This document shows, piece by piece, positions 40,983-64,000 of a stretch of 64,000 nt of DNA (positions are counted from its first letter, which is position 1; the number at the start of each line of letters is the position of its first letter). Below the pieces are notes generated by a model. The model was not told the DNA's origin. It worked only from the letters and a program-made list of their open reading frames with translations, and made no database searches. The DNA comes from Tolypothrix carrinoi HA7290-LM1 (GTDB taxonomy: Bacteria > Cyanobacteriota > Cyanobacteriia > Cyanobacteriales > Nostocaceae). The position numbers were made by a program, and so were the translations under genes. The stretch is from assembly GCA_019358935.1 (NCBI GenBank), contig JAHHIK010000009.1, positions 1-64,000 of the forward strand. Reading direction: 5' to 3'.

Positions 40983-41402
40983 TTAAAATGCCGGCACCTC
41001 GCTTAGTTCCTCATCGCTATCGCTGGAAATATTTTCTTCTAGCAATTCTTGTGCGAAGTCGGGAGTTTCTTCTTTTGTAGATTCAAATTGCACTAATTCC
41101 TGGATAGTTTTTCCAGTTGAGATGAACCCTCTAATTACGAGGCTAGCAACTTTTTCTTTGTAGCCTTCTCGTTCGTTGACTTGTAAGTCGATGTATCCGG
41201 TAGCTATGCCTTGGGAGTTTCCCCCGGAACATTTGATGTCTACGGCTGGGATACCTTTGGCACGGTAGGAAATTTCATCTATTACCGCCCCATCTTTACC
41301 CCGATAGCTAAATTCAGCTATTCCGTAAGTGATTAAACTACCCAATGAGTCGTGGGACTCATTGACGCTTTTGATTACTACTGTTGCGTTGGTTTCAATC
41401 AT
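40983..41402 (-). CDS. Divergent OB-fold SSB/PriB-like protein with acidic tail
   Basis: GYIDLQVNEREGYKEKVASLVI resembles the second cyanobacterial SSB-like family; tail SDSDEELSEVPAF. Confidence 0.55.
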   Translation of the reverse strand: MIETNATVVIKSVNESHDSLGSLITYGIAEFSYRGKDGAVIDEISYRAKGIPAVDIKCSGGNSQGIATGYIDLQVNEREGYKEKVASLVIRGFISTGKTIQELVQFESTKEETPDFAQELLEENISSDSDEELSEVPAF

Positions 41403-41478
41403 GATGTTGTAAAACAATTCACTAAACGAACAATGCCCCAACCGATTGTTCTGGGCTGGGGACTTGACGAAGATATTT

Positions 41479-41862
41479 TTAGTAATTTGCGTTAGCAATG
41501 CTTGCGGTTTGTTTTTCTTCTTTATAGGATTTATCCTCGTTCTTTGGAGAACCTAATAATTCGATTGTTTGAACCGTTACTATTGGTTTAGACCGCATTG
41601 CACCTGAATTTTTGTCTGTCCACCTATCGAATCCAAATTCACCTACTATAGCGATTTGTGTTCCCTTTTTGACGTAATTTGCAATTACCTCGGCGGTTGA
41701 ACCCCAGGCGATAAGGTCGAACCATAATGCATTTTCACTTTTGTAAGGAGGTCTAACTGCAACCGAGATACTTGCTTTTACCGAGCCACTTTCAAAATAA
41801 CGGATTTCCGGGTCTTGACCGCAGCGTCCGACAATTGTGATGCGATTGAGATACTCGCTCAT
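41479..41862 (-). CDS. ssb: Single-stranded DNA-binding protein
   Basis: LNRITIVGRCGQDPEIRYFESG, WFDLIAWG..AEVIANYVKKG. Confidence 0.93.
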   Translation of the reverse strand: MSEYLNRITIVGRCGQDPEIRYFESGSVKASISVAVRPPYKSENALWFDLIAWGSTAEVIANYVKKGTQIAIVGEFGFDRWTDKNSGAMRSKPIVTVQTIELLGSPKNEDKSYKEEKQTASIANANY

Positions 41863-42044
41863 AAAATTTGTTGAAATTTTTAATACTTCAAATCCTTTTT
41901 GCGTAAGCACCTGTCTTGTTTGTGGTTGTTTGCGACTGGATGGGGGATATCCACAATTTTTCTAATATCTGGCTATCTTGTTTATCTATTGGTAGAAAAG
42001 TTATAGATACGGGAAATATATATGTATCGATTTATTAATTATTT

Positions 42045-43034: not shown

Positions 43035-43123
43035 GAAAAAATCAGGTTGGTTTAACCAATCCTGATAATACTTTGCTTGATTTATAGTTGCACAGCTATA
43101 ACTGCATGATAGCTGTTGGTTGT

Positions 43124-43786
43124 TTAAAAAAGTGATAATTGGGGATTATTTTCCTCTGTAGATTGATTGTTTAAGAGGGGTTTTTGCTTAAGCTTTTTAC
43201 CCCATTCGTTACTTGCACCCTTTACCACATAAGCGCGGATATCGGTGGCGAGAGTTTCATAATCATGCTGAATTTGTTTGTAATTGATTGGCGTTATACC
43301 AATACTTTCCCAAAGTTTATCGTAATCATAATTTGGAAATGGTTTGTGTTTGGAGAGAGTAGTATGTGAAGCCCAAAGGTATACGTTTGTCCACTCCCAA
43401 GATAGTGGAACTTCAAAAGTAATTGGCATTATTACAGCAAGCACTTCGCTTGGCGTAGCAAGTTTCCCTACCTCACCTTTATCTACCTCCTCTAGGATTG
43501 TATCTAGTCTGTCAACTACAATTGCTTGCCACACCCAATTAGGAATAGCATCCCTCCATTCTCGCCGACCAGTGATTGTGGGACCAGCTAGATATTTAAT
43601 TAATTGTGCATCCACCTCTGCTAGTTCTAACAAACAGGCGAATACCTTTCTATCCATACCCATGCTGGCTAGAATCTTAAGCATTTTTTGAATATTTGGA
43701 GTTAGTATTTTTTCTCCTTTTAATTTACTATTTTTGATTGTTTGTTCAATATCAAACAGGCTTTGTTGTTGCATTTTAACCTCCAT
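43124..43786 (-). CDS. Hypothetical protein with N-terminal QQSLF and C-terminal QLSLF motifs
   Basis: 220 aa (start may be 43774). Confidence 0.8.
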   Translation of the reverse strand: MEVKMQQQSLFDIEQTIKNSKLKGEKILTPNIQKMLKILASMGMDRKVFACLLELAEVDAQLIKYLAGPTITGRREWRDAIPNWVWQAIVVDRLDTILEEVDKGEVGKLATPSEVLAVIMPITFEVPLSWEWTNVYLWASHTTLSKHKPFPNYDYDKLWESIGITPINYKQIQHDYETLATDIRAYVVKGASNEWGKKLKQKPLLNNQSTEENNPQLSLF

Positions 43787-43847: not shown

Positions 43848-44660
43848 TTAGCGCAAGAGTAGGTTATCCCATACGTTTCTAGGTGATACGTGACATTGAA
43901 ATTGTTCTCTTGCTGTCGTAAAGAAAGCGAGCAATCCCGTCTTTTTAGTCTTTTCCCACCATCTTGTCTCTAAGTAGGTGAGTAATAAAGCTTGGGTTGA
44001 TTTATCCTGTTTACTTGTCCAATTACTCACTTCTAGGGCTGTAATTACATTTTTGGGAGGTACTTGCAGTTGGTCGAGTATGCTTTCTGGTATGGAATTT
44101 AACAGACTGTGGAATGCGATCGCACGACCAGGACTGCCTAAACAAAGTTCGAGTATGTCTTGATGGAGGTAGATTTTATGGTTTTCCAGAATAGTTTTTA
44201 GTTCATCAATAGGTAGTTGAGCAAATGGGATTATTTGACACCTACTTTTTATGGTAGGCAGTATATTCTGGGCTTGGGATGTAATGAGGATAAATATTCC
44301 TTTTCCTGGTGACTCTAAGATTTTAAGTAAGGCGTTGGCGGCGTTTAGCGTGATACTGTCGCAGTCGTGGATAATTACTATTTTGCGATCGCCTTCAATA
44401 GGAGAGGTTGAAAGGAAGGCGATCGTTTCCCGTACCTGTTCTACTCCGATAGTAGAATTGTCTTCTTGCGGACGCACTTCCAGCATATCTGTGGTGCTAC
44501 AGATGTAGTCAGCAAATAGTCGGGCAGTTTTGGTTTTACCTACCCCTTCGACGGTGCTGGTAAATAGGTAGGCGCTTGAAATTTGATTTTGGGCAATCGC
44601 ATTATTTAAGATTAGTTTTGCGGTATGCTGCCCGATTATCTCGTTAAAGAGGTTGTTCAT
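43848..44660 (-). CDS. holB: DNA polymerase III delta-prime-like clamp loader subunit
   Basis: AYLF..EGVGK, AANALLKILE.P, LPTIKSRCQ. Confidence 0.9.
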   Translation of the reverse strand: MNNLFNEIIGQHTAKLILNNAIAQNQISSAYLFTSTVEGVGKTKTARLFADYICSTTDMLEVRPQEDNSTIGVEQVRETIAFLSTSPIEGDRKIVIIHDCDSITLNAANALLKILESPGKGIFILITSQAQNILPTIKSRCQIIPFAQLPIDELKTILENHKIYLHQDILELCLGSPGRAIAFHSLLNSIPESILDQLQVPPKNVITALEVSNWTSKQDKSTQALLLTYLETRWWEKTKKTGLLAFFTTAREQFQCHVSPRNVWDNLLLR

Positions 44661-45610
44661 AGGGTGCAGATTTTGATGATGGTGGGGGTGAAGTTGTCAA
44701 TGCCAGACTTGAGTTCACCTTCAAGTTGGATTAGTGCTACGAGTATTTGTTTGAGTTTAACGACGCTTACAGCTTCGACTTCTTTTTTGAGGAAGTACAG
44801 CCTTTTGGGGTTGCTGAGTTCGGCGAGTGTTGAGATTTTATTGTCGGGCAGTTTTTCTTCTACCCCAGCTTTCGTAATTAACCAAGTGCGGAAGTAACTT
44901 ATGAGGGTGGCGACTATTTTAAGAGGGTGTTCATCCTCAACTAGTAGGCGGTGGAGTATTTGTCCTGCTGTATCGGCTCTACTATTTTTAATGGCGTGGG
45001 CGAGTTCGGTACAACTGATATTGTTGTTGCTTATAAGTGACTGAACATCTCCTAACTCCAATTTTTGCCCCTGAGCGTAGATAGCAAGTTTGGTTAATTC
45101 GCTATCGAGCCGTGCAGTATTGTTTCCAATTGCCTCCACTAGATAGGTAGTGGCGGCGGGGACAAGCTCTAAGGAATGGGTTTTTACTGCTGCTTGAATT
45201 AGTTTTTCTATTCCTTGTTTATCCCAACTGGGGATGAGAGGAAATTCTTCAACTTCGGCGTGTTTGAATAGTGCTTTGACGACTTTGCTTCTACCATCAG
45301 GTTTCCAAAGTGAGGTAATTAAAAGTAGGTTTGGAGTAGGTACTTTGTCAAGATTTTTTAAGAGTGAGGAAATTATTTCATCCGAACATTTATTGAATAT
45401 TGTCCCATCTGTAATGTGGACAATTTTTCCACCTTCCCCCAAGGGAACTGTCATTACCTCTGTTATTGCCTGGGGTATTGCTGCTGCTTTGTTATCAACT
45501 CGAATGTAGTTGAAGATTTCCCACTCTTGGGTAGTAAAATCTTTAATTAATTCTTCCACCCTTTTTGATATTGAGTGGATATCTTCCCCATAAATTAATT
45601 TTACTGGCAT
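44657..45610 (-). CDS. holA: DNA polymerase III delta clamp loader subunit
   Basis: LIYGED, T.PLG.GG, KPDGRSK, RLDSELTKL, EHPLKIVATL, NPKRLYFL (cyanobacterial HolA pattern). Confidence 0.9.
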   Translation of the reverse strand: MPVKLIYGEDIHSISKRVEELIKDFTTQEWEIFNYIRVDNKAAAIPQAITEVMTVPLGEGGKIVHITDGTIFNKCSDEIISSLLKNLDKVPTPNLLLITSLWKPDGRSKVVKALFKHAEVEEFPLIPSWDKQGIEKLIQAAVKTHSLELVPAATTYLVEAIGNNTARLDSELTKLAIYAQGQKLELGDVQSLISNNNISCTELAHAIKNSRADTAGQILHRLLVEDEHPLKIVATLISYFRTWLITKAGVEEKLPDNKISTLAELSNPKRLYFLKKEVEAVSVVKLKQILVALIQLEGELKSGIDNFTPTIIKICTL

Positions 45611-46088: not shown

Positions 46089-46874
46089 TTATAGGATTCC
46101 CTTGTTGCCAACCGATTGTATATCAACTTTACTTTGGTTGACATCTTGAACTGAATTTATAACTTGCTGAGTACCGTGATATTTGCGCCAGCCATCTAAG
46201 TCGCTTAGGTATTGCAACAGCGCAGATGGACCAGCTACCTGATATAGCGAGATGGCTGATTCCCACTCCCGAAAATTTGCTTTTTTATCGTTGAGAATTT
46301 TGATAATGGCACTGGGAAGTTTGTATCGAGTGCCACTATTTAAATTAATGTGCGGTGTGGTTTCTAGAAGTAGTTCCTGTTCGGATAGGGGTACACCGCC
46401 ATCTTTAAGATTTATCTCGTTTAGTTGGGCAGTTATACCTGAGAGAGGTAGGGTTTGTTGGGTTATACTGGCGACTAATATTTTCTGTTTAGTCTTCCTA
46501 GATTTGACAACTACAGGGTTTTTGGGAATGGGTATTAAGTAGCTTTGTGGAAGTTCAAGTGATAGCTGTTCTTTGAGTCGGTAGGGTAAGGTTTGTTTTT
46601 GGGCTGGGGTAATCTCGTAGGAGAAATTGGCTGTTTGTCTGGGGTCGCCAAACTTTCGGAGTTTGATTCTTACCTTGTAAGATATACTTCCTTGAATGAG
46701 TGTATGACTGTCAATAACTGTAGGTATACTATGTTCCCACCATACAATTTCAACAACTCGGTCGCCGTCTAATGAGTTATAGACATTGGTTAATCTGGCG
46801 TAGGGCTTTACTTCAAGGAAGTTATTTAACCACTTGCGTTGTTTTTTGTTGAGCAGTGATAATTTTTTAGCCAT
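46089..46874 (-). CDS. Hypothetical protein directly downstream of polB
   Basis: 261 aa, 2 bp after the polB stop; internal QLSLEL. Confidence 0.8.
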   Translation of the reverse strand: MAKKLSLLNKKQRKWLNNFLEVKPYARLTNVYNSLDGDRVVEIVWWEHSIPTVIDSHTLIQGSISYKVRIKLRKFGDPRQTANFSYEITPAQKQTLPYRLKEQLSLELPQSYLIPIPKNPVVVKSRKTKQKILVASITQQTLPLSGITAQLNEINLKDGGVPLSEQELLLETTPHINLNSGTRYKLPSAIIKILNDKKANFREWESAISLYQVAGPSALLQYLSDLDGWRKYHGTQQVINSVQDVNQSKVDIQSVGNKGIL

Positions 46875-46876
46875 TG

Positions 46877-48691
46877 TTAGAAAAGAGTCAGTTGTTTGCC
46901 GCTGTTTAGCATTTTAGGGTTTGCAATTTGCAGGATTTCTACTCGTTTTTGGGCGAGTAATTTGATGTAATACTGTGATGAATACTTTTGTAGGCTGTTG
47001 ATGTCTGTTACACCCAGAATGCTGTAATAATAAGTCACGACATCTCCGGGTTTTCCAAGTTTGAGAAGTTCTTTTTCACCCTCTTTAATTCTGCGAGTAA
47101 TGCACAAGTTTTCTTTTGGATATTCCCTTGATAAAATATGGGATAAAATGTGGGTGTAATACTCTTCTGCTGCTGATATATCTTGGATTAGGAGAGTTAA
47201 ATACTGAATGGAAAACTCTTTCTCTAGTTGCGAGCGATCGCGATTGCGCCAGTTGCCTTTGGTGATGATTTTCCCGTGCGGAAGCCATAGGAGGTAGTTT
47301 TTGGTTCCTCTTTCCGGGATAAACATCGCCGAAGCGATAAACTCTAGTTTGACGGTTATCCCTTCAGGCAGTTGAGATTGAAGTAAACAATGTATCTCTT
47401 CTGGATTGGGGTGGGTGAAAAACACCCCGTCAGTGTCAACTTCCACGGGAGTACCCCCTTCATAAGTGATAATTTCAATCATGAGTTTGAGTACCTTTCT
47501 GCTGTAGGCTGTCACCAAAGCCGCAGCCTCCATATCGTTGAAGGCGAGTTCAGATGTGCCGAAGAAGCCAAATTCGGAGTTAGCTAGAACTTTGACAGAT
47601 TCTCTCTTCTCCTTGGCAGCAATATTTCCACTAGATGCAAGTTGTTCCAGTCTAGATTTTTCATTCACCAGATATTGCAGGATACTTAGCCCAATACGTT
47701 TTGTATCTTTGATTGAGCAAATACCCTTGTCTAGCATTGCCCAAGGGTGCATTGAGCTAATATCTGCATATCCGACCTTTCTATACAGTCCAGGGATAGA
47801 GTAGGCCATGCCTCCCTGGAATTTGTACTTGCGATCGGGTTTGGGTTTATAGCCTGGATAATGATGCTCAAATATTCGCTCCCACTTGGTACCATTACCA
47901 GCAAGTGCTAGCTGCTGGAGATTCATTTCCGGTACAATTAGTGCTTCGTAATAGTATGACGGTACAAGTCTGTTAGCAATTAACTGCGTGTCTTCGAGGT
48001 CGTACACAAGATACTCTTTTAGCCGTTTCCATCCCTTACTGTTGGGGCCATCTTTCCAACAAGCGAGGATTTCCTCATAAGGAAGAACCAGTCTGGTGTT
48101 TTGGCGCAGTCCCATGTCCAATACAGCTTTTTTGAGCGACCTTCCGTTGGTTAGCTTTTTGGTGACAAAATCCCACCTGAGAACGCAGATGTAAACGTCT
48201 ACATGCTGGCTATTTTGGACAAATACCTCCCGAATTTTTAGCGGTTCGCCTCGTACCTTGGCAGTTCGGATAGTCCGAGATTTGGATGCAATTTTAAATG
48301 GGTGTTTTATACCATGCAGGTTGGATCTAGTGATAATGAATGGAATGTCAAATTCCATCCCGTTGTAGGTGAAAATTACATCTGGATTTTTCTTCTTTAA
48401 GTGATTGAAAAAGTCTGTGATAGTTTGTGCTTCTGAAATATTCATAAAAACAGTAGGATATCCCATTTCATCCATACACCCGATGGCATAAATGCGATTT
48501 TCAATTGGGTCTATACCTGCTGTTTCAATATCGACAAATAACTGTGAAAGTTCCTGGTATGGCTTGAGTTGTACTTGCGGTTGCCAGGGTTGAATTGGAG
48601 TGGGGTCTTTCCAATAAATGTCTAGTTTATCTTCATCGACAATGATTATACCCCTAGATTTTTTGACAAAATCCCTGTGGTTATAACTCAT
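46877..48691 (-). CDS. polB: Family B DNA polymerase with 3'-5' exonuclease domain and C-terminal clamp-binding motif
   Basis: ExoI DIET, ExoII YNGMEFD, ExoIII YLVYD; motif A DISSMHP, motif B KVLANSEFG, motif C DTDG; ends QLTLF. Confidence 0.9.
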   Translation of the reverse strand: MSYNHRDFVKKSRGIIIVDEDKLDIYWKDPTPIQPWQPQVQLKPYQELSQLFVDIETAGIDPIENRIYAIGCMDEMGYPTVFMNISEAQTITDFFNHLKKKNPDVIFTYNGMEFDIPFIITRSNLHGIKHPFKIASKSRTIRTAKVRGEPLKIREVFVQNSQHVDVYICVLRWDFVTKKLTNGRSLKKAVLDMGLRQNTRLVLPYEEILACWKDGPNSKGWKRLKEYLVYDLEDTQLIANRLVPSYYYEALIVPEMNLQQLALAGNGTKWERIFEHHYPGYKPKPDRKYKFQGGMAYSIPGLYRKVGYADISSMHPWAMLDKGICSIKDTKRIGLSILQYLVNEKSRLEQLASSGNIAAKEKRESVKVLANSEFGFFGTSELAFNDMEAAALVTAYSRKVLKLMIEIITYEGGTPVEVDTDGVFFTHPNPEEIHCLLQSQLPEGITVKLEFIASAMFIPERGTKNYLLWLPHGKIITKGNWRNRDRSQLEKEFSIQYLTLLIQDISAAEEYYTHILSHILSREYPKENLCITRRIKEGEKELLKLGKPGDVVTYYYSILGVTDINSLQKYSSQYYIKLLAQKRVEILQIANPKMLNSGKQLTLF

Positions 48692-49519: not shown

Positions 49520-49627
49520 GTATTTAACAAAGAAATTGTAAGTTGTATAATATTAAGAGCGTTAGCTATAGCTGCGGTTTTATTTGAACTAATAACTAAC
49601 TCTCCCTAATCAGGGAGAGTTGCTATT

Positions 49628-50917
49628 CTAAGCTTGTTGCAGTTGTGTTTGTTGCAACTTTTGAATAACTTCCACCCACACTAAGGCTTTCTTTCCATTA
49701 ATGGGTGTAAGCTTTTGCCAGTGTTCCTGTAACTGTGTCTGCGATAAGTGGGGTAACTGTTCTTTTGCCCAGTTAATTGCGTCTTGGGCAGTTTTCCAAT
49801 CCTTCCAGGGTTGAGTTTGGGAACTATTCTTTGTGGTTTGAACTATCTCGATAATGGTAGCTTCCATCCACAAGTGCGCGTTTTCATCTCGCATAAGATT
49901 TTGACGTGCCATCAGGAGTGCGATCGCACTGTGGATGTGGTTAACGCTCCACGATTTGGAGATTGTTGTAAGGGAATTCCAGGTTTCCTCTTCGAGTTGG
50001 GTAATATTTCTGCCATCGGGGTTGGTTTTGCAGACAAGCAGGTCTTTTAGAAAGCTGACAAGGCTTGTGTGGATGGTGATTGGGTGCTTGCCGCATTCAA
50101 TCCAATTTTGGAGAATGCCTAAATTGCCTGTAATTTGTCTAAGAGTGATATTTTCAAAGAAAGTGACTAAATCGTATTCGGGGATAATACCCGATAGTTC
50201 CCATACCCAATTGGGAGTGATTTCTCCTTCTCCCAGCAAGGTTAGTTGGTCTAAAAGTTTGAGTGAGTCGCGCAAGTGTCCCTTGTTTGTTTTGGCGACG
50301 GCTGTTAATGCTAGCGGATTGATATTTATACCTTCCTGGTGGGCAACTTTTTCTAGGTAATTTACAACTAGTGAGAGGGTAACCCTTCTAAAATCGAACT
50401 TTTGGCAGCGGGAGGTAATAGTTTCTGGGACTTTGTGTACCTCGGTGGTACAGAAGATGAACACAACATGGGCTGGTGGTTGTTCTAATGTTTTGAGTAA
50501 TGCTTGCCACGATTGGTGGGAAAGGGCATGACATTCATCTATTATTAGGATTTTGTACCTACCCTCGATTGGTTTAAGTTGAAGGTTGGATACCATCTCG
50601 CGGATGTTATCTACACCAGAGTGGCTGGCGGCATCAAGTTCGGTTACATCGAGAGATGAGGAGTGGGAAATAGTCTGACAAGAATTGCACTCGCCACAGG
50701 GTTCGGTTGTTGGTTCCTCTGTTGATTGACAGTTGAGAGATTTGGCGAGAATGCGCGCTGTAGTCGTTTTACCCGTACCCTTGGGACCGGTAAATAGATA
50801 GGCTGGGGCAGTCTTTTTGAGCAAGATCGCATTATTCAGGGTGCGTACAATATGTTCTTGTCCGACTATTTGTGAAAGTTGCTGGGGGCGATACTTGAGA
50901 TGCAGTGGTGTGTACAT
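49628..50917 (-). CDS. dnaX: DNA polymerase III gamma/tau-like clamp loader ATPase
   Basis: LKYRPQ, GPKGTGKT, C..PCGECNSC, DECH, SRCQ. Confidence 0.95.
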   Translation of the reverse strand: MYTPLHLKYRPQQLSQIVGQEHIVRTLNNAILLKKTAPAYLFTGPKGTGKTTTARILAKSLNCQSTEEPTTEPCGECNSCQTISHSSSLDVTELDAASHSGVDNIREMVSNLQLKPIEGRYKILIIDECHALSHQSWQALLKTLEQPPAHVVFIFCTTEVHKVPETITSRCQKFDFRRVTLSLVVNYLEKVAHQEGININPLALTAVAKTNKGHLRDSLKLLDQLTLLGEGEITPNWVWELSGIIPEYDLVTFFENITLRQITGNLGILQNWIECGKHPITIHTSLVSFLKDLLVCKTNPDGRNITQLEEETWNSLTTISKSWSVNHIHSAIALLMARQNLMRDENAHLWMEATIIEIVQTTKNSSQTQPWKDWKTAQDAINWAKEQLPHLSQTQLQEHWQKLTPINGKKALVWVEVIQKLQQTQLQQA

Positions 50918-50987
50918 ATTTGAGAAAGTCAAATTTTCTAAATGGATTTGTGTATAGCCAGTAAAAATGCTGGCTATACTTGTTGGT

Positions 50988-54036: not shown

Positions 54037-55098
54037 TTAAGGCTTGTATATTTTGATGATGCGGGTGGCTACGCTTGTGGGGTTATTTGATTGCAAAAAG
54101 GCATCTTTGGGTAGAGACTCATCATATAAATTCCAATTTTCTAGCCATTCTTTAAAATCCTTATATTTATTGTTGAAGAATACTGACTCTGGAACTATTG
54201 CTATCAGGATTCCTCCTGAATGAATTAACTTCCACGCATGGTAAATATGTTCAATTAATTGAGAGAAGGGAGGGTTCATAATGATATGAGAGTATAAATT
54301 TTCGGCTGTACAACCTAGAAAATCTCTACCTACTAAGTTGAACCCTTTCAATTCGAGGATTCTACGTAGAGTTGGGTTAATCTCTACTACTTCTAAATTG
54401 ACTTGATGATATTTATTGAGTATGGATTCGGCAATACAGCCAGAGCCAGCGCTGGGTTCAAGTATGCGAGAGCTTTCATTAATTTCTGCTAACTGAATTA
54501 GGCGATCGCAAACAGGAGGTGGGCTGGGGAAGAAGTCTCCAGACTTCATTCCAATGATTTTTAACTCCAGCCGATTTAGCTCTTGTTGAGTAGTATTAAC
54601 CTTATCAGGTTTAACAACTTTCTGAATTTCAGCTATCGCAGACATAATCTCGCCTGCGGTGCAAATACTTGCGCGGTAGAGAGACTTTATCCTATCTTGA
54701 TAATACTCATTGGAGAGAATTTCTTCTACCTCTTCGAGAGTCCTTGCTCTTTGAGAGATTTTGTACAGTGCTTCTGCTTGGGACTTTTGGGAGATGCCCC
54801 GCAGCACTTCGGGGGTATTTCCCACAAACCACATTTGGGCTATAGCAAGTAACCAAGATTGGATTGTTTGTAGTTCTACTCCTTCGGCGATAATTGATTG
54901 AGCGATTGTTTTGCGGCGTTTGGTTGCCCGCTGTTTGTTTATGGCAGGATTGAGCTTATTGTCAATTGATTGTTGCATCGAGGTGGCAAGTTCTTGCAGT
55001 TTCGCGGCTTGCTTCGGGTTGGGAGTGTTGAGATTGAAGGTGTAGATTTCGCCGGGGGTTGTATGTTCTGGGATTATTTTAAAGAGCGATAGTTGCAT
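54037..55098 (-). CDS. SAM-dependent (probably N6-adenine DNA) methyltransferase, N-terminal MQLSLF
   Basis: DFFPSP, LEPSAGSG (motif I), MNPPF (motif IV). Confidence 0.85.
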   Translation of the reverse strand: MQLSLFKIIPEHTTPGEIYTFNLNTPNPKQAAKLQELATSMQQSIDNKLNPAINKQRATKRRKTIAQSIIAEGVELQTIQSWLLAIAQMWFVGNTPEVLRGISQKSQAEALYKISQRARTLEEVEEILSNEYYQDRIKSLYRASICTAGEIMSAIAEIQKVVKPDKVNTTQQELNRLELKIIGMKSGDFFPSPPPVCDRLIQLAEINESSRILEPSAGSGCIAESILNKYHQVNLEVVEINPTLRRILELKGFNLVGRDFLGCTAENLYSHIIMNPPFSQLIEHIYHAWKLIHSGGILIAIVPESVFFNNKYKDFKEWLENWNLYDESLPKDAFLQSNNPTSVATRIIKIYKP

Positions 55099-55399
55099 TT
55101 TCTTGTAGATCCTTGAGCGCGCATTTGACAATGAGTGATTCTTCTGTACCCCAGACTTTTATTTCCCAAGGAGTATTTAGGCGTTCGCTTGGGCGAATTA
55201 CAGCTTTAGTGCATTTGTCCTTACGGGTTATCCATACAAGGAAGCTTTCGGCTTTTTCCTTAGAGTTAAACCCAAAGTAGGTAGTTTTTCTTACTCCCGT
55301 AGGGCTGGTAATGGTGGCGACTCGCGGAGATAAAATGTTAAATGTCCAACCATCGGGGGTAAGTTCAACTTTTTTGACTTTAATTTCTGGGGAGTTCAT
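55079..55399 (-). CDS. Hypothetical protein
   Basis: 106 aa, overlapping both neighbours. Confidence 0.75.
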   Translation of the reverse strand: MNSPEIKVKKVELTPDGWTFNILSPRVATITSPTGVRKTTYFGFNSKEKAESFLVWITRKDKCTKAVIRPSERLNTPWEIKVWGTEESLIVKCALKDLQENATIAL

Positions 55400-56070
55400 A
55401 ATTCAACTTCAGGAATGGCATCTAGATATTCTTTAGTTGTAATTTCCCTATTCATCCACTTGTGATGGATGATTTCTAAACTTTCTTGCTCAACTTCTTG
55501 TTGAATTTCCTCTACCGCAAACTGTGTAATAATAGACAACAGTCTTTCTTTGAAAGCTATGTGTTTTACTTCTGAATAGGTGAATTGGTAAATATCCGCT
55601 GTGTTGACGAACAAGTAGATTAGATTAATTTTTTCCGCTGGTAATTGGGTTTTCTCATAGAGTAAGAATAATCTTAGTTGAGTATGAAATGAATTCTCTA
55701 AAGACTGAAAATTTGATGGTTTTTGGATAGTCCAGTCCAGTGCAATTACCTGTTGTTCCTGATAAATGATTAAGTCATAATTAGCGTGGACTAACTGTGA
55801 CTTGTAGAGATACTGCGCTTCGGCATTCCATTGTTTGTTACCAGGAATTTCTAGAAATGGTAGCAGCACTTTTACCCACTTGCCTAATTGAGGATATGCC
55901 TTTAAGAATGGTTCTACAGGTAGTCCTAGCCCAATCTGCTGCATGATGATGTGAAACTTGCCACCAAGTTTTTCACCTTGGCTAATTGGTGATGTACGTA
56001 TGGTGTTTTTACCTGAACTTTTACTTTCACATTCAAGCTTTTCTAACAGACTTGGATTAAATCTGTCCAT
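55396..56070 (-). CDS. PD-(D/E)XK nuclease-fold protein, possibly degenerate
   Basis: G.KFH..MQQ, YDLII, ALDWT (usually DWK), QLRLF. Confidence 0.6.
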   Translation of the reverse strand: MDRFNPSLLEKLECESKSSGKNTIRTSPISQGEKLGGKFHIIMQQIGLGLPVEPFLKAYPQLGKWVKVLLPFLEIPGNKQWNAEAQYLYKSQLVHANYDLIIYQEQQVIALDWTIQKPSNFQSLENSFHTQLRLFLLYEKTQLPAEKINLIYLFVNTADIYQFTYSEVKHIAFKERLLSIITQFAVEEIQQEVEQESLEIIHHKWMNREITTKEYLDAIPEVEL

Positions 56071-56134: not shown

Positions 56135-56968
56135 TTAGACAGTGTGATATTTATCTAAGTTTTTAACTGTGGTTTGGATACTGCGACAAGACATAGAAAT
56201 TAGGTTGAAGTAGCTAACAAACTTGCTTATTTTTCCTATTAGGGTTAACTCTAATAGGTATTGGGATGCAATGGCTGATGTCATGCGGTTTATGAATAGA
56301 GTTTGGTGATTAAGTATTTGAATTTCCGCACACGAGAGGTTGTTGCTGCTAAGTTCTTCAGGCTTTGGGATTAGTAATTCGGGATGTACCAGCGCTGGGG
56401 ATGGTAGGTGTTTCCAGAATGCGGGTTTATCTGGGTTATTGGAGGCGGTTACAATATTGAAATCAGCGTGGGTTCCTAATATAACTTGTCCTGATAGTGA
56501 ACTGTTACCGCAGTCTAGCCAGAAGAAGTCAGCTTGTTCGCGCGGGCTGTTATATTTTAAACACGAGTGAATTTGTGCCCTGGCGGCAGCATTGTCCACG
56601 CAGCCGATGATAATTGTGAGGGTATTCCACTTGTAATTTTCTACATGGTTAGGGGAAAACCAATCTGAAATTGCTGTTACTACTACCCCATATTTGGCAC
56701 TGCACCTGGTGGCTAGACATTGTGCTTTGGGAAAACTTATCTCAGATGGTTGGTAATTTTGGCGTGCGATATTTTTAGGTTCGACGCTATCTCCATCGAT
56801 GATGGTGAGGTTAGCCTTTTTCTCGTTTTGCTGTAGCTGTACTATGAGGCGGCAAACATCTTCGGCAAGATACCCCCCTGTGCCACCAGCCCCTACTAAA
56901 ATAAAATTTACTTTGCGGTGGGGACGGGGGAGAACGGGTAAGAAAAATTCTGTGTCGATTTGTATCAT
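56135..56968 (-). CDS. PRTRC-type ThiF/E1 adenylyltransferase
   Basis: GAGGTGG, DGDSVEPKNIARQ, GCVDN, WLDCGN, LSCAE. Confidence 0.92.
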   Translation of the reverse strand: MIQIDTEFFLPVLPRPHRKVNFILVGAGGTGGYLAEDVCRLIVQLQQNEKKANLTIIDGDSVEPKNIARQNYQPSEISFPKAQCLATRCSAKYGVVVTAISDWFSPNHVENYKWNTLTIIIGCVDNAAARAQIHSCLKYNSPREQADFFWLDCGNSSLSGQVILGTHADFNIVTASNNPDKPAFWKHLPSPALVHPELLIPKPEELSSNNLSCAEIQILNHQTLFINRMTSAIASQYLLELTLIGKISKFVSYFNLISMSCRSIQTTVKNLDKYHTV

Positions 56969-57537
56969 AACTCAAATATCAAATTAGGGTCAATTTCAAT
57001 GAAGTGGTTGTATGCCCCTACGCGGGTGTAGATGGTAGGCTTTTTGTCAACTGTGCCGATAATTCCAAATATGCGGAACTTTCCTGACTCCTCTTGGTTG
57101 TCTTGGTTGCTGGGGATTGCTCTCATACAGCCGTGTGAGTGGATTTCAACCAATGTTTGGCTGTATCTGAGGTTTGTATTTTCCAGCGAGCGCACATGAG
57201 TTGAGGATGCTTCTTGTGCTGGTGTGTGACACCACCATTGGCTATTTGCAACCCCCAAATAAAAAAGGATTTCTTGATGGGGATTAATCCGCGCAGCATT
57301 GATGATGTCTGCAATTATGCTTGCTGGCACTTTTGGTACATTTAACTTGAAATAGGGTTGTATTTGTGCCAATCCTATTATGTGGGTATGGGCGATTTGC
57401 AAGCAGATTTCTAATTCTGGGCGGTGCGATCGCGCATATACTCCATCAGATGCAAGCCAGTATTCCTGAAGTTTTTGGCTCTTTGGGGGAAGGTTGTGAC
57501 TGACAGCGTAGTTATAGCTGATGAAGAGGTTATTCAT
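56965..57537 (-). CDS. JAB/MPN metallo-isopeptidase (PRTRC protein A-like)
   Basis: E...EIHSHG....S..D..EE JAMM motif. Confidence 0.9.
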   Translation of the reverse strand: MNNLFISYNYAVSHNLPPKSQKLQEYWLASDGVYARSHRPELEICLQIAHTHIIGLAQIQPYFKLNVPKVPASIIADIINAARINPHQEILFYLGVANSQWWCHTPAQEASSTHVRSLENTNLRYSQTLVEIHSHGCMRAIPSNQDNQEESGKFRIFGIIGTVDKKPTIYTRVGAYNHFIEIDPNLIFEL

Positions 57538-58246
57538 GTTGGAATAGATACTTGGGTATATCGTTTGGCGTTTTGATTGTTTGATACTCTCTAGCGACTA
57601 ATTCCTTTGCTGGGAAGGATTTTGTGGTTCGTAGGCTGATCAACAAGTCGCAGACATTGTGGGGGTGTGATTTTGATTTGTTTTGGCTGAAGTCTTGGTT
57701 GAAAGGGCTGTTCCAGAACAATTTCCAGGTTTTATTGATTGAGTCGGGATTACAAGCAGGTGGGATGTTCCTACCGAAGCAAATTTTATTTGAGTCGTCC
57801 CAAATATTTGGTAACGGCGCTTTGTATAATTGACAATCCTGCTTGAAGGTTCTTCCTTTAACTGCCCATAAGTAGTAGCTGCTGTTGCATCCAGCGAATA
57901 TAAATGCTGGCATGGGAATAGTTATTGTATTGTTTCCTTCTGGAGTTTGTATTGAGACTGAATATTTTTGGGGCGGGTAAAATTGAATAATACCTTCTCC
58001 ATTTGGTGTTATTTCCCACCACAGCGTATTGGGAGATAACCATCCTGAATTTACAGTTTTGGCTGTAAACGCTTTTTCCACAGCTTCAGGCGATAGAAAT
58101 TTATGCTGTGTTTTATTACCTTCTTTTTCTATCAGTACAAACTGTCCTTTGAGAATGATTAGATGCCCTAAAATTTCCTGCTGTGGAATGTTATTCAGTA
58201 TGACTTGAGTGTTTAATCCTGTATTTATATGGCAGCTTGATTCCAT
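57530..58246 (-). CDS. Prokaryotic E2 family D protein (PRTRC protein B-like)
   Basis: LYKAPLPNIWDDSNKICFG with catalytic-position Cys; FWNSPF. Confidence 0.88.
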   Translation of the reverse strand: MESSCHINTGLNTQVILNNIPQQEILGHLIILKGQFVLIEKEGNKTQHKFLSPEAVEKAFTAKTVNSGWLSPNTLWWEITPNGEGIIQFYPPQKYSVSIQTPEGNNTITIPMPAFIFAGCNSSYYLWAVKGRTFKQDCQLYKAPLPNIWDDSNKICFGRNIPPACNPDSINKTWKLFWNSPFNQDFSQNKSKSHPHNVCDLLISLRTTKSFPAKELVAREYQTIKTPNDIPKYLFQHE

Positions 58247-58947
58247 ATTTTGACTACCTTCTTTCGATTGGCTATTGATACTTCTATCCAGTCTGATAAC
58301 TCTTCAAATTGGTTTAATATGATGCTGGCTTCTTGCCATTTATCGGCGATCAGTAATACATTTTCTTCACTCCACTCCCACCAATATCCAGTTTCATAGG
58401 TTGTGTCTAACCAAATATTGCCTGTTGAATAGTCGAGAACACTCAGGCTAGTTACTAAATATTTGATTGGTGATTTTAACTTGTTACAGATTTTTACAAG
58501 TTTTTGAAAGTCTATATTTTCCACATCTGCTATATAATCAGGTTTAAACCCAAATTCTTCTTCCCAATATTCAAGGCTATACCCACTACCCATAACCGAG
58601 AGTAAGAATTTTTCGCTTGCCTCTAAATCTTCAAGGTTTTCATTCCACCATTCAAGTCTTTGTGGTAATATAGCTATACTTTCATACTCTCCGTATGTTT
58701 CTATTTCATCAATAAATTCAACTGGAAACAAGTTTGAATTTACTAGGTGAATAAATTCAATTTCTCTATCTGAATATATGCAATCAGGATGTGTTTTTCT
58801 GTTTATAGGTGTTTTTGACTCATACCATTCTTCTGCAAATAGTTTTTGATATAAACTGAGTAAACTTGCTTTTTGAGAGAAGTTTTCCAGATAGGTGATT
58901 GCTTCTGTACAGGTGATGGGTATTTTAAATAGTTCTAGTGATATCAT
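58225..58947 (-). CDS. Acidic hypothetical protein in the Ubl cassette (positional equivalent of PRTRC protein F)
   Basis: 240 aa between the Ubl and E2 genes, overlapping the E2 start. Confidence 0.65.
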   Translation of the reverse strand: MISLELFKIPITCTEAITYLENFSQKASLLSLYQKLFAEEWYESKTPINRKTHPDCIYSDREIEFIHLVNSNLFPVEFIDEIETYGEYESIAILPQRLEWWNENLEDLEASEKFLLSVMGSGYSLEYWEEEFGFKPDYIADVENIDFQKLVKICNKLKSPIKYLVTSLSVLDYSTGNIWLDTTYETGYWWEWSEENVLLIADKWQEASIILNQFEELSDWIEVSIANRKKVVKIWNQAAI

Positions 58948-58991
58948 GATGAACGATAACTGCCGCTAGTGTGGATAGCGGCGTTGCTTAA

Positions 58992-59414: not shown

Positions 59415-59419
59415 GGCGA

Positions 59420-59869
59420 TTAGAATAGTGAAAGTTGTTGTTTATCCGACTCGTTTGGATGGAAGTTATTAGATAAATCTCGTTTTTGTACTTGTTTACG
59501 CTCCTGAGATTGATTAATATGATTAAGAGCAATCTTTCTTTTTTCGGCGGCTTCAATAATTTTAGGTAAGGCTACCTCTAATTCTTGAATACTTTCTTGA
59601 ATGATGGTTTGTTGGGTTATTTCCTGATAGCTAGCATTTTTGATAATGGGAGGTGCATTTTTAATACCAATGGAGAAAATAGCCTGTTGCTCGTCTGGAT
59701 AAATTTGGATGGTTATTAGATAGACTTTAGGGTTTGATATGCTGTTGCTGTTATCTTCATAATCATCTGTTTCATCACTATCTTCTAAGCTATTGTTGTT
59801 ACTAGAATTCAAATCACTACTGTAACTAGCTTTGGAGTTAGTTACACTTTCTTGCTCTTGATTGTTCAT
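59420..59869 (-). CDS. Hypothetical protein (PRTRC protein E-like position) ending QLSLF
   Basis: ATG at 59869 overlaps the PrimPol stop (ATGA); acidic N-terminus. Confidence 0.75.
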   Translation of the reverse strand: MNNQEQESVTNSKASYSSDLNSSNNNSLEDSDETDDYEDNSNSISNPKVYLITIQIYPDEQQAIFSIGIKNAPPIIKNASYQEITQQTIIQESIQELEVALPKIIEAAEKRKIALNHINQSQERKQVQKRDLSNNFHPNESDKQQLSLF

Positions 59870-60834
59870 GAGAGGTTGGCAAATTTTGCAAGGGTACGAA
59901 TGGTAATGCCTGTTCTGCGGAAAGACTGCCATTTGTAGGCACATTCTCCTGGTTTGTATTTGGGTGATAGTTGACTCCATATGTCCCAGGCTTTGAGTAA
60001 GGTAGGGCTGACTGATTTAAGTGCCATTCCAACTTGAATCCAAGTTGTATAGTCAGAAGCGAACCTGGGGTGTATGACTTCTAAGAATGTAAGTGCAGCT
60101 TGAATATTGGTTTCAATATCGGGGTATAAGTTTACGCATCTGTTTGCCTGATGTGTGCGGTTAGATTTTTCTTGGAGAGAACTCGATGGAGAGTGAATTA
60201 CCCTTTCCTTCTCCTGCTTTAATAGCATTTGGGCTACTACCCAATCTGGTGCGTAAGCAACTTGTTTTTCTTGCGGACTGCAACCGGGAACCCACCGATA
60301 GTATCTTCCTTCTGGGTGGTAGGAAGGAGGTAAAACTGACGCATGATTTTTACCTCTAAACTCCAGATTTGAGATTTTGCTGGACTTGATTGATGATTTT
60401 TCAGTGATTAAGTATAGAAGTTGGCGCTTGTATTCACCTCCAGAGGTGAAGGCGACAGTCGCCGGGAGGTATGCAAGTGCGCTTTCGTATAACTTTTGGG
60501 GAGAAATTTTGTCTATTTCACCCTCTTCTAGTTTTTTGTTGAGGATTAGAATTTGACCCCAGGCGCGGAATCCGTCGCAGTCGATAGCGACGATGTGTCC
60601 TTCGGGTTGGTTATCGCCGCAGACAATAGCAACCCCAGTGGCAGGTGTATACCTCTTCCCCGACCAAATTTTGCATCTAGTACGAATGAGTTCGGCTTGT
60701 AGCTGTTTGGGTGAGTAAGTTTTATACTGCCATTCTTTTCCCCCCAGAGGTCGCTTGCCAAATGTGGGTATAACCCTCCATCTGTCGGGTAGTGTTTCCA
60801 GGGACGAGATAATTTTACCTGCCTGGGCGTGCAT
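59866..60834 (-). CDS. Bifunctional primase/polymerase (Prim-Pol) with PriCT-2 domain
   Basis: KRPLG..WQ, VAIDCDG, LEFRG..SVLPPSYHP; DYTTWIQVGMALK..WDIWSQLSPKY..C.YKWQSF. Confidence 0.9.
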   Translation of the reverse strand: MHAQAGKIISSLETLPDRWRVIPTFGKRPLGGKEWQYKTYSPKQLQAELIRTRCKIWSGKRYTPATGVAIVCGDNQPEGHIVAIDCDGFRAWGQILILNKKLEEGEIDKISPQKLYESALAYLPATVAFTSGGEYKRQLLYLITEKSSIKSSKISNLEFRGKNHASVLPPSYHPEGRYYRWVPGCSPQEKQVAYAPDWVVAQMLLKQEKERVIHSPSSSLQEKSNRTHQANRCVNLYPDIETNIQAALTFLEVIHPRFASDYTTWIQVGMALKSVSPTLLKAWDIWSQLSPKYKPGECAYKWQSFRRTGITIRTLAKFANLS

Positions 60835-60940
60835 GATTTCATTTGATTCCTACTAGTTAACTTTAGTAACTAGATGCATGAGCTTTTGGTGGTGGTTAGC
60901 TGTATTTTGGGCAAGCAGTTATTACTACTTGCCCTATGTT

Positions 60941-61672
60941 TTAGGCTAATCGTTGACTAAGAGCATTTTCCACTTGATAAGTTCCAAGAGTGCAGTTTGC
61001 ATCATAGGGGAAAGTGGGAAATTCCGGGAATTTATTTATAGCTTTTGTTACCCTACACATCACCATTGCTCCCTCCCTTCCCTTTTTGTTTAGTAAGTGA
61101 TGATAGCTGATGACTTCAAATTCATTGTTACCTGCTTCAAATTTGCTTTTTGCGTGTAGGGAAATAGCCTTTTCCCAATTGGGTTGCCATGACATAAGGG
61201 TATTGATTGCTTTTTCTCTAAATGTCGTGTTATCCATGTAATTAAGAATATCTGATACACAACTCTCCCTTTTAGCTATAACTTCGCGAGCGTAATTAAT
61301 TAACCAGTATTCTGCTTCTTGAAGTAGGGTGCGTGATTTTCTATCCAGGCATATTTCGTCATGGCTTTTTGCCATTACATATGCCCGTTGCTCAAAAACC
61401 ATACCGTTAAGGCGCATTTTTAAATCAGATGGATAAAAGGTCATCAAATCAGCTAATTCATCACTAATTGCAGGTAAGGGATATTTGATCGGGGGATAGA
61501 TTTTGACTTGATATCCTAAATTTACTGCATGTTCAACTATTAGGTGAATATCGGATGCAGGGATACAATCACCTATTTGGTAATTTTTATCCAGAAGTAA
61601 ATATGTTGGCGCATGAACAATTTGGAATTTTTGAGGTGATTGTTCGCAGTCAGGAACTAGCTCTACGTACAT
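60941..61672 (-). CDS. Hypothetical protein
   Basis: About 243-aa co-oriented ORF (TTG at 61684 is an alternative start). Confidence 0.75.
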   Translation of the reverse strand: MYVELVPDCEQSPQKFQIVHAPTYLLLDKNYQIGDCIPASDIHLIVEHAVNLGYQVKIYPPIKYPLPAISDELADLMTFYPSDLKMRLNGMVFEQRAYVMAKSHDEICLDRKSRTLLQEAEYWLINYAREVIAKRESCVSDILNYMDNTTFREKAINTLMSWQPNWEKAISLHAKSKFEAGNNEFEVISYHHLLNKKGREGAMVMCRVTKAINKFPEFPTFPYDANCTLGTYQVENALSQRLA

Positions 61673-61815
61673 AATACTAACCAAATTATTTTTTATTTGG
61701 TTAGGCGTTAGTTAGTGTCGTGATTTTGCTGTTGCAGTGTTGTGTAAAATTTCTTATAAAGCTAATAGACTTCATATAAAAAGTTCTGCTCTTAATGTAT
61801 AGAGCAGAACTTGTT

Positions 61816-64000
61816 TTAGACTATTTGTACTTCTTGTTGGATTAAATTTTGAAGTATAAGTAATCCAACTTGTTTGGAGATTGCTGTATTGTCATCGGGG
61901 CATCTGTAAATAACAGTACAGTTTGAACACCCGTGCTTGCATGGACAATTTTCCACTAAGAATCTTGCCCTCGATACGGCTTTTTCCAGATATTGAAATA
62001 GTGTATTGCACATTCCGGTTCCTCCCTCAACTGTATCGAAGAAGTAGCCGACTAAGTTAGGCTGAGTTGGTTCTTCATAAAGCATAAAGTCAATATCTTT
62101 ACTACTAGCACCATGTTCAACTAGTGGTAATGCTAGCATCAGTTGATGTGCTAGACTGTGGATACAAATGTCGGTTTCTTTATATTCAAATAACTCCCTC
62201 TCCTCTTTTGGAATGTACTTCTGATTCTTTATTGGTAACCTAATTTGCTCTACTTTTGACTTGAAGAAATTTCTCGCTTGTCGGTCTATCTCAATTTGCA
62301 AACAACTGGTAGAACAGCTAATAGTCAAAGCTTCCTTATATAATACTTCTTCTACTAGTTGGATTATGTCTTTATCTGTGAGTTCGCTGTTGCATATGGA
62401 ACAGTTTTGTAGTTTACTTGCTAGAGATTGATTGTGGTTTCTGCAATCTTGGTTTGGACAAGTCCATTTTGACTCTCGATTGTATAACCTGTATCCGGAC
62501 ACTGACTCAGAGATGTTACATATTTTAGGAGTAAGTTTTATTACTCCCATTGGCAGTTTGATTGACTTTGCTTCCCCAGTAGTTTTAACTTCCTCAAATT
62601 TAATTAGTCCTTGAGGGCGGGTAAATAAATTTGTTTGTCCAATAGGCTTGAGGAAAGCTTGCCCTTCTTGGATTTTTAACTCTGATGATTTATACCAAAC
62701 TGGATTACCATCAAAATCCTGGGCTGTATAAATTGCATTAGGGTATACTTCTCTTAAAGCAGTGTTGACCGCACTTTGTTCAAACTCCTCCCCAGTTGAG
62801 GTGTTGATATAGTTGATATTGTTGCTTCTGCTCCCCCTAATCTTGATATCGCCGTGTACGTAACCTAAATTGCGGGCGCACGCTAGCTTGCTGTTGAAGC
62901 TGTACACGAGCTTGTTTTCTTGAAGAAGTTGGTTTGCGATCGCAAGTCCAGTTTGTCCGAAATGCTTGCTGATTTGGTTGATTGTCGGGCGTGACTCTTT
63001 GCAGCAGGCTAGAATATGGCACGCGAGTAGATTTTCAAAATTGGGGTTGAAGTTGATGATCTCCGGTGGGTCGGTTAACAACCGTTCGGGATTTTTCGAG
63101 TAGTAAGAGTCTAAAATAGACTGTTTGGAAGGTATGAAGACAACTAGCCCTTCTTGTTTTCTGCCGGCACGACCTGCCCTTTGCCGGAAGGATAGGATGC
63201 TTCCAGGATACTTGCAAATCAGGACGGCATCAATACAGCCGAGGTCTAACCCCGCTTCGAGAGCTGACGTTGACACGATAAACTTGATTTCCCCAGATTT
63301 GATATCTGCAATGATTTTCCTCCTTTGGTTGTTTTTCAAATTGGCGTAAAATGCAGAAATACTATTTTGGAGGTGAAATAACCCATTTTCAGTTAATATT
63401 TTGCGGATTGTTTGGGTTAGGGTTTTGACCATTTCTCTGCTGTCGCAAAAGCATATTCCCACCACATCTTTACTGACAAGTGAAGCTGCTATTTCGGCGG
63501 TTGCGTACAAAGTACTATTCTGGGGTTTGAGACTGATAAATGTGGTTTCAGCTTTTCTTGCACCGCTTTGGCTAATTACTGTAAAATTGCTTTTACGGTT
63601 GGAAATCTTTTGGGCTATCTCTTGGCTATTGCTGATAGTAGCTGAGGCAAAGATATATTGTAATTTGGATATATCACTTCCAGCTAGTTTTATCAGTAGT
63701 TGAGTGCGACGGTTTAGCAAAGCGAAATTGCTACCAAAAATACCACTATAGTAATGAGCCTCATCAACCGTGATTATGGAAATTTTGCGTAGTGTTTCAA
63801 TGAAGTTATAGTTATCAAATTGGTAGTTGGTAAGCTCGTGATTCCAAACATCGGGCGTGACGCAAATAATCGAGGGTTTATGTGTATAAAGCTTTTTGCG
63901 CTCTTGGGATGGAGTATCGCCATTAATATTTAGAATTGCGGGGCGGATAGGCTCTGGTAGGAGATTGATAAACTCCTTTATTTTCTCCTCTTGGTCAAAT
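61816..64000 (-). CDS. DEAH-box helicase with DUF1998 zinc domain (MrfA/Hrq1/SftH-like); 5' end outside the window
   Basis: Frame is open to 64000: NGDTP, TPD, VDEAH, SAT, STSALEAGLDLG, QRAGRAGR, GGTG, CPCKHGCSNC. Confidence 0.92.
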   Translation of the reverse strand, partial: FDQEEKIKEFINLLPEPIRPAILNINGDTPSQERKKLYTHKPSIICVTPDVWNHELTNYQFDNYNFIETLRKISIITVDEAHYYSGIFGSNFALLNRRTQLLIKLAGSDISKLQYIFASATISNSQEIAQKISNRKSNFTVISQSGARKAETTFISLKPQNSTLYATAEIAASLVSKDVVGICFCDSREMVKTLTQTIRKILTENGLFHLQNSISAFYANLKNNQRRKIIADIKSGEIKFIVSTSALEAGLDLGCIDAVLICKYPGSILSFRQRAGRAGRKQEGLVVFIPSKQSILDSYYSKNPERLLTDPPEIINFNPNFENLLACHILACCKESRPTINQISKHFGQTGLAIANQLLQENKLVYSFNSKLACARNLGYVHGDIKIRGSRSNNINYINTSTGEEFEQSAVNTALREVYPNAIYTAQDFDGNPVWYKSSELKIQEGQAFLKPIGQTNLFTRPQGLIKFEEVKTTGEAKSIKLPMGVIKLTPKICNISESVSGYRLYNRESKWTCPNQDCRNHNQSLASKLQNCSICNSELTDKDIIQLVEEVLYKEALTISCSTSCLQIEIDRQARNFFKSKVEQIRLPIKNQKYIPKEERELFEYKETDICIHSLAHQLMLALPLVEHGASSKDIDFMLYEEPTQPNLVGYFFDTVEGGTGMCNTLFQYLEKAVSRARFLVENCPCKHGCSNCTVIYRCPDDNTAISKQVGLLILQNLIQQEVQIV

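Follow-up and report, generated by a model that had tools for sequence, protein, structure and literature searches.

The window analysed here is a 64-kb stretch of DNA from Tolypothrix carrinoi HA7290-LM1, which forms the start of the 108.7-kb contig JAHHIK010000009.1. It contains a run of genes for a family B DNA polymerase (PolB), a bacterial sliding clamp and clamp loader, single-stranded DNA (ssDNA)-binding proteins, a primase-polymerase and a helicase. The genes of this run (hereafter the module) are all on the minus strand, except for one opposite open reading frame (ORF) at 42045-43034. Genes for VirD4, VirB10, a VirB4 homolog, nikA and parAB are also present on the contig, and its gene order is colinear with that of pCC7120beta, a plasmid of Nostoc PCC 7120. 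These type IV secretion system (T4SS), nikA and partition genes, together with the colinearity, indicate that the contig is part of a conjugative plasmid, in line with the plasmid origin proposed in an earlier sequence-only reading of the window. Domains were called using Pfam/NCBIfam profile scans of ORFs. The genes which that reading had named are all intact ORFs located where it had placed them, although it overlooked a PRTRC-type E1/JAB/E2 cassette, a DUF5895 gene, a DNA methyltransferase gene and several clamp-binding motifs within the run. The genes for DNA synthesis, and the partition genes that border them, are as follows.

46877..48691, minus strand: PolB, assigned to group G3, 604 aa (exonuclease domain E 2.5e-12; polymerase domain weak, E 1.6e-4)
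50988..52304, minus strand: DnaN beta sliding clamp, 438 aa (TIGR00663, 256 bits, cut-off 138)
49628..50932, minus strand: DnaX, gamma-like, 434 aa (TIGR02397, 423 bits, cut-off 250)
44657..45610, minus strand: HolA, clamp-loader delta (TIGR01128, 178 bits, cut-off 80)
43848..44660, minus strand: HolB, delta-prime, with SRC motif (PRK07399, 248 bits, cut-off 230)
41479..41910, minus strand: SSB (Pfam/NCBIfam)
40983..41399, minus strand: predicted SSB/PriB-fold protein with an acidic tail ending in Phe (structure model)
59866..60834, minus strand: PrimPol (PF09250) with PriCT-2 (Pfam)
61816..64000, continuing to contig position 64518, minus strand: MrfA/Hrq1-like superfamily 2 (SF2) helicase, DEAH motif and DUF1998 (MZB) zinc domain, 900 aa
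38768..40596, minus strand: parA-parB partition genes, border of the module (Pfam)

Host copies of dnaN, dnaX, holA and holB are located on other contigs and share 32-44% identity with the plasmid set, and the sole DnaE-N match of the genome is on a different contig. No DnaE, DnaG or DnaB family was found among 90 scanned ORFs (a subset of the ORFs on the contig), which agrees with the earlier statement that the window lacks their genes.

PolB is a family B DNA polymerase with intact ExoI-III, A, B, C and KxY motifs, and its catalytic residues (D54/E56, D115, Y227/D231, D310, K367/N371, D419/D421 and K464/Y466) are all kept in a 30-row alignment. It is predicted to be active and to proofread. 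Its closest PDB matches are distant archaeal PolBs, and no solved structure of a close relative was found. The ratio of non-synonymous to synonymous change (dN/dS) in polB is 0.05-0.14, indicating purifying selection. Group G3 PolBs are defined by a conserved Glu in motif C and include Nostoc and Salinibacter phage enzymes (PMC7544198). Motif C of the plasmid PolB is VEVDTDG, in which E417 is nearly invariant, and its 17 phage matches are of the same kinds, 7/17 being Nostoc-type (with Anabaena and Dolichospermum phages) and 10/17 Salinibacter. Its ExoII motif, TYNGMEFD, is without the 'GWN' of the Pol II-like group G1. The Glu before motif C and the phage relatives thus fit membership in G3 (Kazlauskas et al. 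2020, PMC7544198) and in the clade of plasmid and Nostoc phage PolBs (PMC4916379). Occurrence of this PolB on pCC7120beta, pP742402 and T. variabilis plasmid C had been described by Chenard et al. 2016 (PMC4916379), and the enzyme studied here is 85% identical to the pCC7120beta enzyme that they named. In their accessible parts, neither of these two papers gives a function for G3 PolBs or links a G3 or plasmid PolB to a clamp, loader or primase, and the word 'clamp' is absent from the main text of PMC4916379. The polB gene was exchanged between plasmid lineages, as its synonymous difference to pCC7120beta (0.44) is lower than that of dnaX (0.60) or other genes (0.66-0.87).

The C-terminus of PolB is QLTLF (residues 600-604), a beta-clamp motif (consensus QL[S/D]LF; PMC3716654) that reads QLSLF in most relatives. 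A terminal QL[ST]LF is exact in 19 of 22 PolB loci from a GTDB scan, variant in two and lost in one truncated ORF, and the motif is also found in the PolB of PCC 7424, which is only 39% identical. It is missing in the PolB of phage N1 and in two further PolBs that have no clamp genes in their vicinity. Terminal clamp motifs occur in 4/28 module ORFs and in 9/7969 ORFs elsewhere in the genome (p 8e-8). In a complex model, PolB residues 594-604 lie in the canonical pocket of the plasmid clamp (score 0.65, compared with 0.02 for the best control). Runs had 88% or more of their contacts in common, and the predicted local distance difference test (pLDDT) value of the partner was at least 55; the mark used for such models was reached by 116/157 solved pairs and 2/215 mismatched pairs. 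As similar clamp-peptide complexes have already been solved, the model speaks for likeness to them rather than for binding. The motif and the model both support the earlier proposal that PolB is a partner of a bacterial clamp.

The clamp and its loader also have their motifs intact. The pocket residues of the plasmid DnaN (TDGHRL, MPV) are intact, and it shares 33.5% identity with the host DnaN. Its low-complexity tail of ~65 aa (window 50988-51180) has a basic patch at its end and resembles the tail of the PCC 7424 clamp. A comparison with host copies by tree was made for DnaN only. In a quick tree of 45 clamps, the 12 PolB-linked clamps formed one clade (SH-aLRT 99), separate from the chromosomal clamps, while two plasmid clamps without PolB fell within the host clamps and that of PCC 7424 was a long branch without firm placement. 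DnaX has intact Walker A, DECH and SRC motifs and zinc cysteines. It is 434 aa long, against 631 aa for the host protein, and aligns to positions 2-392 of a 640-position cyanobacterial model, leaving it ~200 C-terminal residues short and without the tau C-terminal region that couples polymerase and helicase. Judged by these motifs, DnaX (Walker A/B, SRC), delta and a delta-prime with an SRC motif make up the minimal bacterial clamp loader set. One PolB relative (P0025) is a HolA-PolB fusion. Taken together, the proofreading G3 PolB very likely works on the plasmid-encoded beta clamp and gamma-like loader. Two points weigh against an exclusive pairing. The QLTLF motif would bind the host clamp too, so a private PolB-clamp pair is not demonstrated by it, and polB was swapped between lineages whose clamps share only 54% identity.

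The sequence-only reading had presented the combination of a PolB with a bacterial clamp system as an odd hybrid replisome. The pairing itself is supported, but its oddness was overstated, because E. coli Pol II is also a family B polymerase with a C-terminal pentapeptide for the beta clamp (QLGLF, compared with QLTLF here; PMC3716654). Pol II, a G1 enzyme, is encoded on the chromosome and works in repair with the beta clamp and gamma complex of the host, whereas the plasmid PolB belongs to another group and comes with its own clamp, loader, primase and SSBs. Unlike the plasmid enzyme, the phage N1 PolB has no clamp motif with which to make such a contact. The module shares with the bacterial Pol III holoenzyme a homologous beta clamp and a minimal DnaX-delta-delta' loader with intact motifs, but differs from it in having no DnaE on the tested plasmids, the shortened DnaX and a clamp clade of its own.

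The association of these genes is conserved among plasmids. Gene order is alike in the 22 GTDB loci wherever contigs are long enough. A PLSDB search returned 29 records with this PolB, 19 cyanobacterial (several of them from near-identical strains) and 10 distant Deinococcus records; the latter share 23-26% identity and were excluded from the counts, and the one Deinococcus locus inspected had no clamp genes within 7 kb. All 19 cyanobacterial PolB plasmids also carry DnaN, HolA, PrimPol and VirB4, and the same 19 are the top DnaN matches in PLSDB. The core order DUF5895-dnaN-dnaX-polB-holA-holB is kept in Gloeothece, Chroococcidiopsis and Calothrix plasmids, and in Anabaena cylindrica without DUF5895. 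An MrfA-type helicase is on at least 15/19 of the plasmids (among the best 40 of 960 matches), but was not found on pANACY.02. PolB is sparse in the phylum, being found in 11 of 401 sampled genomes including this one, in several as fragments. DnaE was considered as the plasmid partner of the clamp and rejected: it was found on 0/5 complete plasmids by profile and 0/7 by tblastn, and no cyanobacterial plasmid was among the best 40 of 2336 matches. Both the conserved linkage and the absence of dnaE from the replicon support the earlier reading.

Of 41 cyanobacterial plasmids with holA, 19 carry this PolB and 13 a Klenow-like PolA, with none carrying both among the matches listed. This suggests that the polymerase slot is exchangeable. 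The other nine have neither polymerase (among the best 50 of 159 PolA matches), although one of them has a truncated PolA. Such plasmids would be expected if the clamp and loader mainly served host Pol III or other clients and PolB were a phage-derived passenger, as would the phage relatives of PolB and the DnaN-like matches on 452 plasmids across bacteria. We consider this very improbable, given that every cyanobacterial plasmid with this PolB also has DnaN and HolA (19/19), that polB is under strong purifying selection with a conserved clamp motif and a HolA-PolB fusion, and that the short DnaX matches only part of the 640-position model. A sister family of clamp-bearing plasmids is characterised by the Klenow-like PolA type, which is found on plasmids of 12-42 kb too. 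In this genome, a 587-aa Klenow-like PolA with an internal QLSLL lies beside a DUF5895 gene on contig C91 (L037:4081-5844), and a second plasmid-type set, dnaN-dnaX-holA without holB or polB, lies on the 11-kb contig C173 (L038).

Several lines of evidence connect PolB with replication. Among the matches listed, 31/150 PolB relatives are at least 1200 aa long, and, of 31 relatives scanned, the long ones carry PrimPol, PriCT-2, DUF3987, DUF5906/D5 or AAA_25 domains. The window PrimPol is homologous to the N-termini of small-plasmid Rep proteins and of PrimPol-PolB fusions. Three PolB fusions (P0013, P0058 and P0102) contain a domain like a 1277-aa protein encoded on contig C96 (L122:1944-5777), which has CxxC and GVGKS motifs and no Pfam match. 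A homolog of this protein shares a contig with polB in the nearest relative, and it also resembles a pANACY.02 protein that, from gene order only, would be the CyRepX listed in PMC10899382. The C96 protein is therefore a putative CyRepX-like initiator. A separate initiator is present on 4/6 complete PolB plasmids (DUF3854 on two, DUF3987 on one and CyRepX on one). The other two, pCC7120beta and T. variabilis plasmid C, have no known initiator, and PMC10899382 lists no CyRepA or CyRepX for either.

We therefore weighed the reading that the module is an accessory, plasmid-private and clamp-dependent DNA synthesis module for plasmid replication, to which we give an even chance. PrimPol would prime single-stranded plasmid DNA coated by SSB-type proteins, and the DnaX-HolA-HolB loader would place the beta clamp of the plasmid at the end of the primer. 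The G3 PolB would dock on the clamp via its C-terminal QLTLF and extend processively, and other motif-bearing plasmid proteins may share the clamp. The module would thus be the elongation part, acting after a separate and exchangeable initiator and without tau-type coupling to the DnaB helicase. Host enzymes can probably stand in for it, so the module can be lost.

Losses of the module weigh against a replicative role. In two records of T. variabilis plasmid C, an IS5 at residue 261 separates the exonuclease part of polB from the polymerase part; the transfer genes are intact, the polB pieces show no sign of decay, and the plasmid has no DUF3854, DUF3987 or listed CyRepA/CyRepX. Plasmid pBOCT2 shares the backbone but has lost the module from PrimPol to ssb; it has no DUF3854 or DUF3987 match, although a co-resident plasmid carries the module. 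On contig G225:C2 the module has decayed and a DUF3854 Rep is present, which counts in favour of an accessory function. An essential replicon would always be intact, and on plasmid C, pBOCT2 and G225:C2 the module is not. Broken module remnants (pieces of polB, holA and dnaX) were also seen in chromosome-sized contigs (L141 and L142, in genomes G041 and G151).

The sequence-only reading had gone further and described a host-independent synthesis machine. In its fullest form, pCC7120beta-type plasmids, two of which are without a known Rep, would replicate themselves with PolB on the bacterial beta clamp and loader, primed by the archaeo-eukaryotic primase (AEP) and opened by the SF2 helicase, independently of host Pol III, DnaG and DnaB, with a polymerase slot exchangeable between families A and B. 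We regard this as doubtful. Neither the scanned ORFs nor the pCC7120beta annotation yielded a hexameric helicase (no dedicated DnaB profile search was made), no DnaG-like gene was seen in the scans (again with no dedicated profile search), DnaX is short and pANACY.02 lacks a detectable SF2 helicase. The frequent separate initiators and the plasmids that persist with polB split or the module deleted also count against a complete host-independent replisome.

The same machine may instead serve conjugation, converting the transferred strand (T-strand) to duplex in the recipient or replacing it in the donor, which would make establishment independent of a foreign host replisome. The presence of VirB4 on 19/19 PolB plasmids also fits a role in conjugation, which weighs against one in plasmid replication. 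The module and the relaxase lie on opposite sides of nikA, and the module is transcribed toward the presumed origin of transfer (oriT; not located), a layout described for leading-region genes (PMC11541004). Its toolkit suits ssDNA templates, with no hexameric helicase found, and its loss is tolerated in cultured strains. The inferred T-strand is rich in G over C and T over A, and the strand asymmetry of the contig at fourfold sites (0.40) is the largest of 42 contigs of at least 60 kb. We nevertheless consider a conjugative function only tentatively possible. This VirB4 type is on 131 plasmids and this PolB on only 19, and the T4SS genes of pBOCT2 and plasmid C are intact despite the deleted module and split polB. 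Cargo of 28-60 kb separates nikA from the module in this contig and in pCC7120beta, and Rep-type domains occur in fusion with PolB relatives. Three module plasmids show only a weak strand bias, and the conjugative contig C24, which has no module on it, shows the bias as well. GC skew was set aside as proof of replication mode: it is strong here and in pCC7120beta but weak in three other module plasmids, and it also occurs in pBOCT2 and on C24. There is also another primase candidate, a conserved RdRP-like protein beside the relaxase. This protein, which has a DxDGD motif and is 2200-3100 aa long, comes after the relaxase on C96 (L121:5816-15259), on C24 (L120:1824-5159) and at 147920-155665 of pCC7120beta; the C24 homolog has a weak match to RNA-dependent RNA polymerases (RdRP; E 5.8e-4), and RdRP-like enzymes of mobile elements have been proposed as primases (PMC3417536).

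A role in repair or recombination, in which the module fills gaps on the plasmid as E. coli Pol II does on the host clamp, appears unlikely. MrfA/Hrq1-type helicases are repair helicases, and the module is dispensable. The steric-gate position of PolB, which we take from established knowledge to lie in motif A (DISSMHP), is His in 21/22 GTDB loci, across the Nostocales clade, and Tyr in 128/131 readable distant relatives. The replacement might relax sugar selection, that is, the exclusion of ribonucleotides, which would also suit repair. Pol II itself, with its QLGLF clamp motif, belongs to family B and acts in repair (PMC3716654). A private clamp and full loader are not obviously needed for repair, however, the proofreading motifs are intact, and close relatives either carry Rep domains of the primase-helicase kind as fusions or are listed as the DNA polymerase of lytic Nostoc phages.

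Seen as an accessory replication module, the gene set has several partial counterparts. The T4-like replisome (gp43 PolB, gp45 clamp, gp44/62 loader and gp32) is likewise a mobile-element system in which a PolB comes with its own clamp, loader and SSB, but its clamp and loader are of archaeo-eukaryotic type, compared with the bacterial DnaN and DnaX/HolA/HolB here; in the module an AEP would do the priming, and a search of its genes revealed no gp41-like helicase. HelPrimPolB and PrimPol-DUF3987 or CyRep-type replicases likewise combine PrimPol and PolB in one replication unit, whereas the module parts are separate genes, without a fused P-loop domain and with a clamp system added. The parts therefore have precedents in Pol II on beta, T4-type triads and PrimPol-PolB fusions. 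A literature search, with most subscription journals outside its reach, found no description of this combination. The 2001 Nostoc PCC 7120 genome paper is said to mention Pol III subunit genes on pCC7120beta.

How most large cyanobacterial plasmids replicate has yet to be explained (PMC10899382). Nostoc PCC 7120 is a model strain, and the module on one of its plasmids brings together a G3 enzyme and the probable processivity factor, loader and primase of that enzyme, which opens plasmid replication and G3 function to deletion and reconstitution experiments. If the module does replicate the plasmid, then on mobile DNA bacterial clamp systems can work with replicases of either family A or family B, and host-independent vectors could follow.

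The remaining features of the run are as follows.

52377..53288, minus strand: DUF5895 protein, usually directly upstream of dnaN
43124..43786, minus strand: protein with clamp-motif matches at both ends (QQSLF, QLSLF)
59420..59980, minus strand: first gene of the PRTRC-type run, C-terminal QLSLF
54037..55131, minus strand: DNA methyltransferase-like protein, N-terminal QLSLF
56135..58947, minus strand: PRTRC-type cassette (ThiF/E1, JAB, E2-D and a neighbour)
46089..46874, minus strand: protein directly downstream of polB, kept in most relatives
55396..56070, minus strand: conserved protein whose pCHRO.01 homolog is annotated as a PD-(D/E)XK nuclease

The SSB-like ORF at 40983-41399 has no Pfam match. 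In its low-confidence model (pLDDT 61), it is a five-stranded oligonucleotide-binding (OB) fold of SSB/PriB type, and only SSB/PriB chains were among the matches listed (Foldseek probability 1.00, E 2.4e-3, template modelling score ~0.5). The DUF5895 model is confident and bears a weak likeness to OB-fold ssDNA-binding proteins (best Z 4.7, root-mean-square deviation (rmsd) 5.0, 161 aligned). Both this match and that to T4 gp32 (Z 4.4, rmsd 16.8, 156 aligned) are under the level of trust, Foldseek gave no match at E 0.001 and no Z reached 5. DUF5895 is a tentative candidate for a phage-type SSB. DUF5895 is related to cyanophage Pam3 gp34 by language-model features. It shares 51% identity with the PCC 7424 copy and ~25% with its neighbours in closer plasmids, so it was also swapped.

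The ubiquitin-like PRTRC-type cassette lies within the module (window 56135-59980) and is interleaved with it rather than part of the core, as the clusters of PCC 7424 and Calothrix 7716 have no such cassette nearby. The clamp motif of its first gene also occurs in a paralogous cassette on C24 (QLTLF). An AT-rich gap of 0.9 kb between dnaX and polB (48692-49627) contains a 21-nt inverted repeat (49239-49285), and relatives have different inserts there. A PHROGs search gave no match for ORFs without an assigned function, a repeat search for iterons or an origin in the module found no convincing array, and promoter-like sites in the module are at chance level (23 compared with 22.8 expected). 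RNA-library contigs from 4 of 23 listed runs span 28-30/30 bins of a related module; they were not used as evidence, since contigs cannot show transcription and one run is DNA-like.

Outside the module, a cargo island of higher GC content (window 9058-33675) encodes a 2227-aa kinase/AAA/PAS sensor, a LuxR regulator and many oxidoreductases and hydrolases. Three imperfect 21-nt repeats with 55-nt spacing (window 33876-34006) near a ParM-like gene (35067-36323) are possibly a centromere-like site, and three 15-nt repeats at 20-nt spacing lie near the start of parA (window 40527-40581). The block of ssb, the SSB-like gene and parAB also occurs on a second element without the polymerase-clamp module, contig C141 of this genome, and on pBOCT2 (L084).

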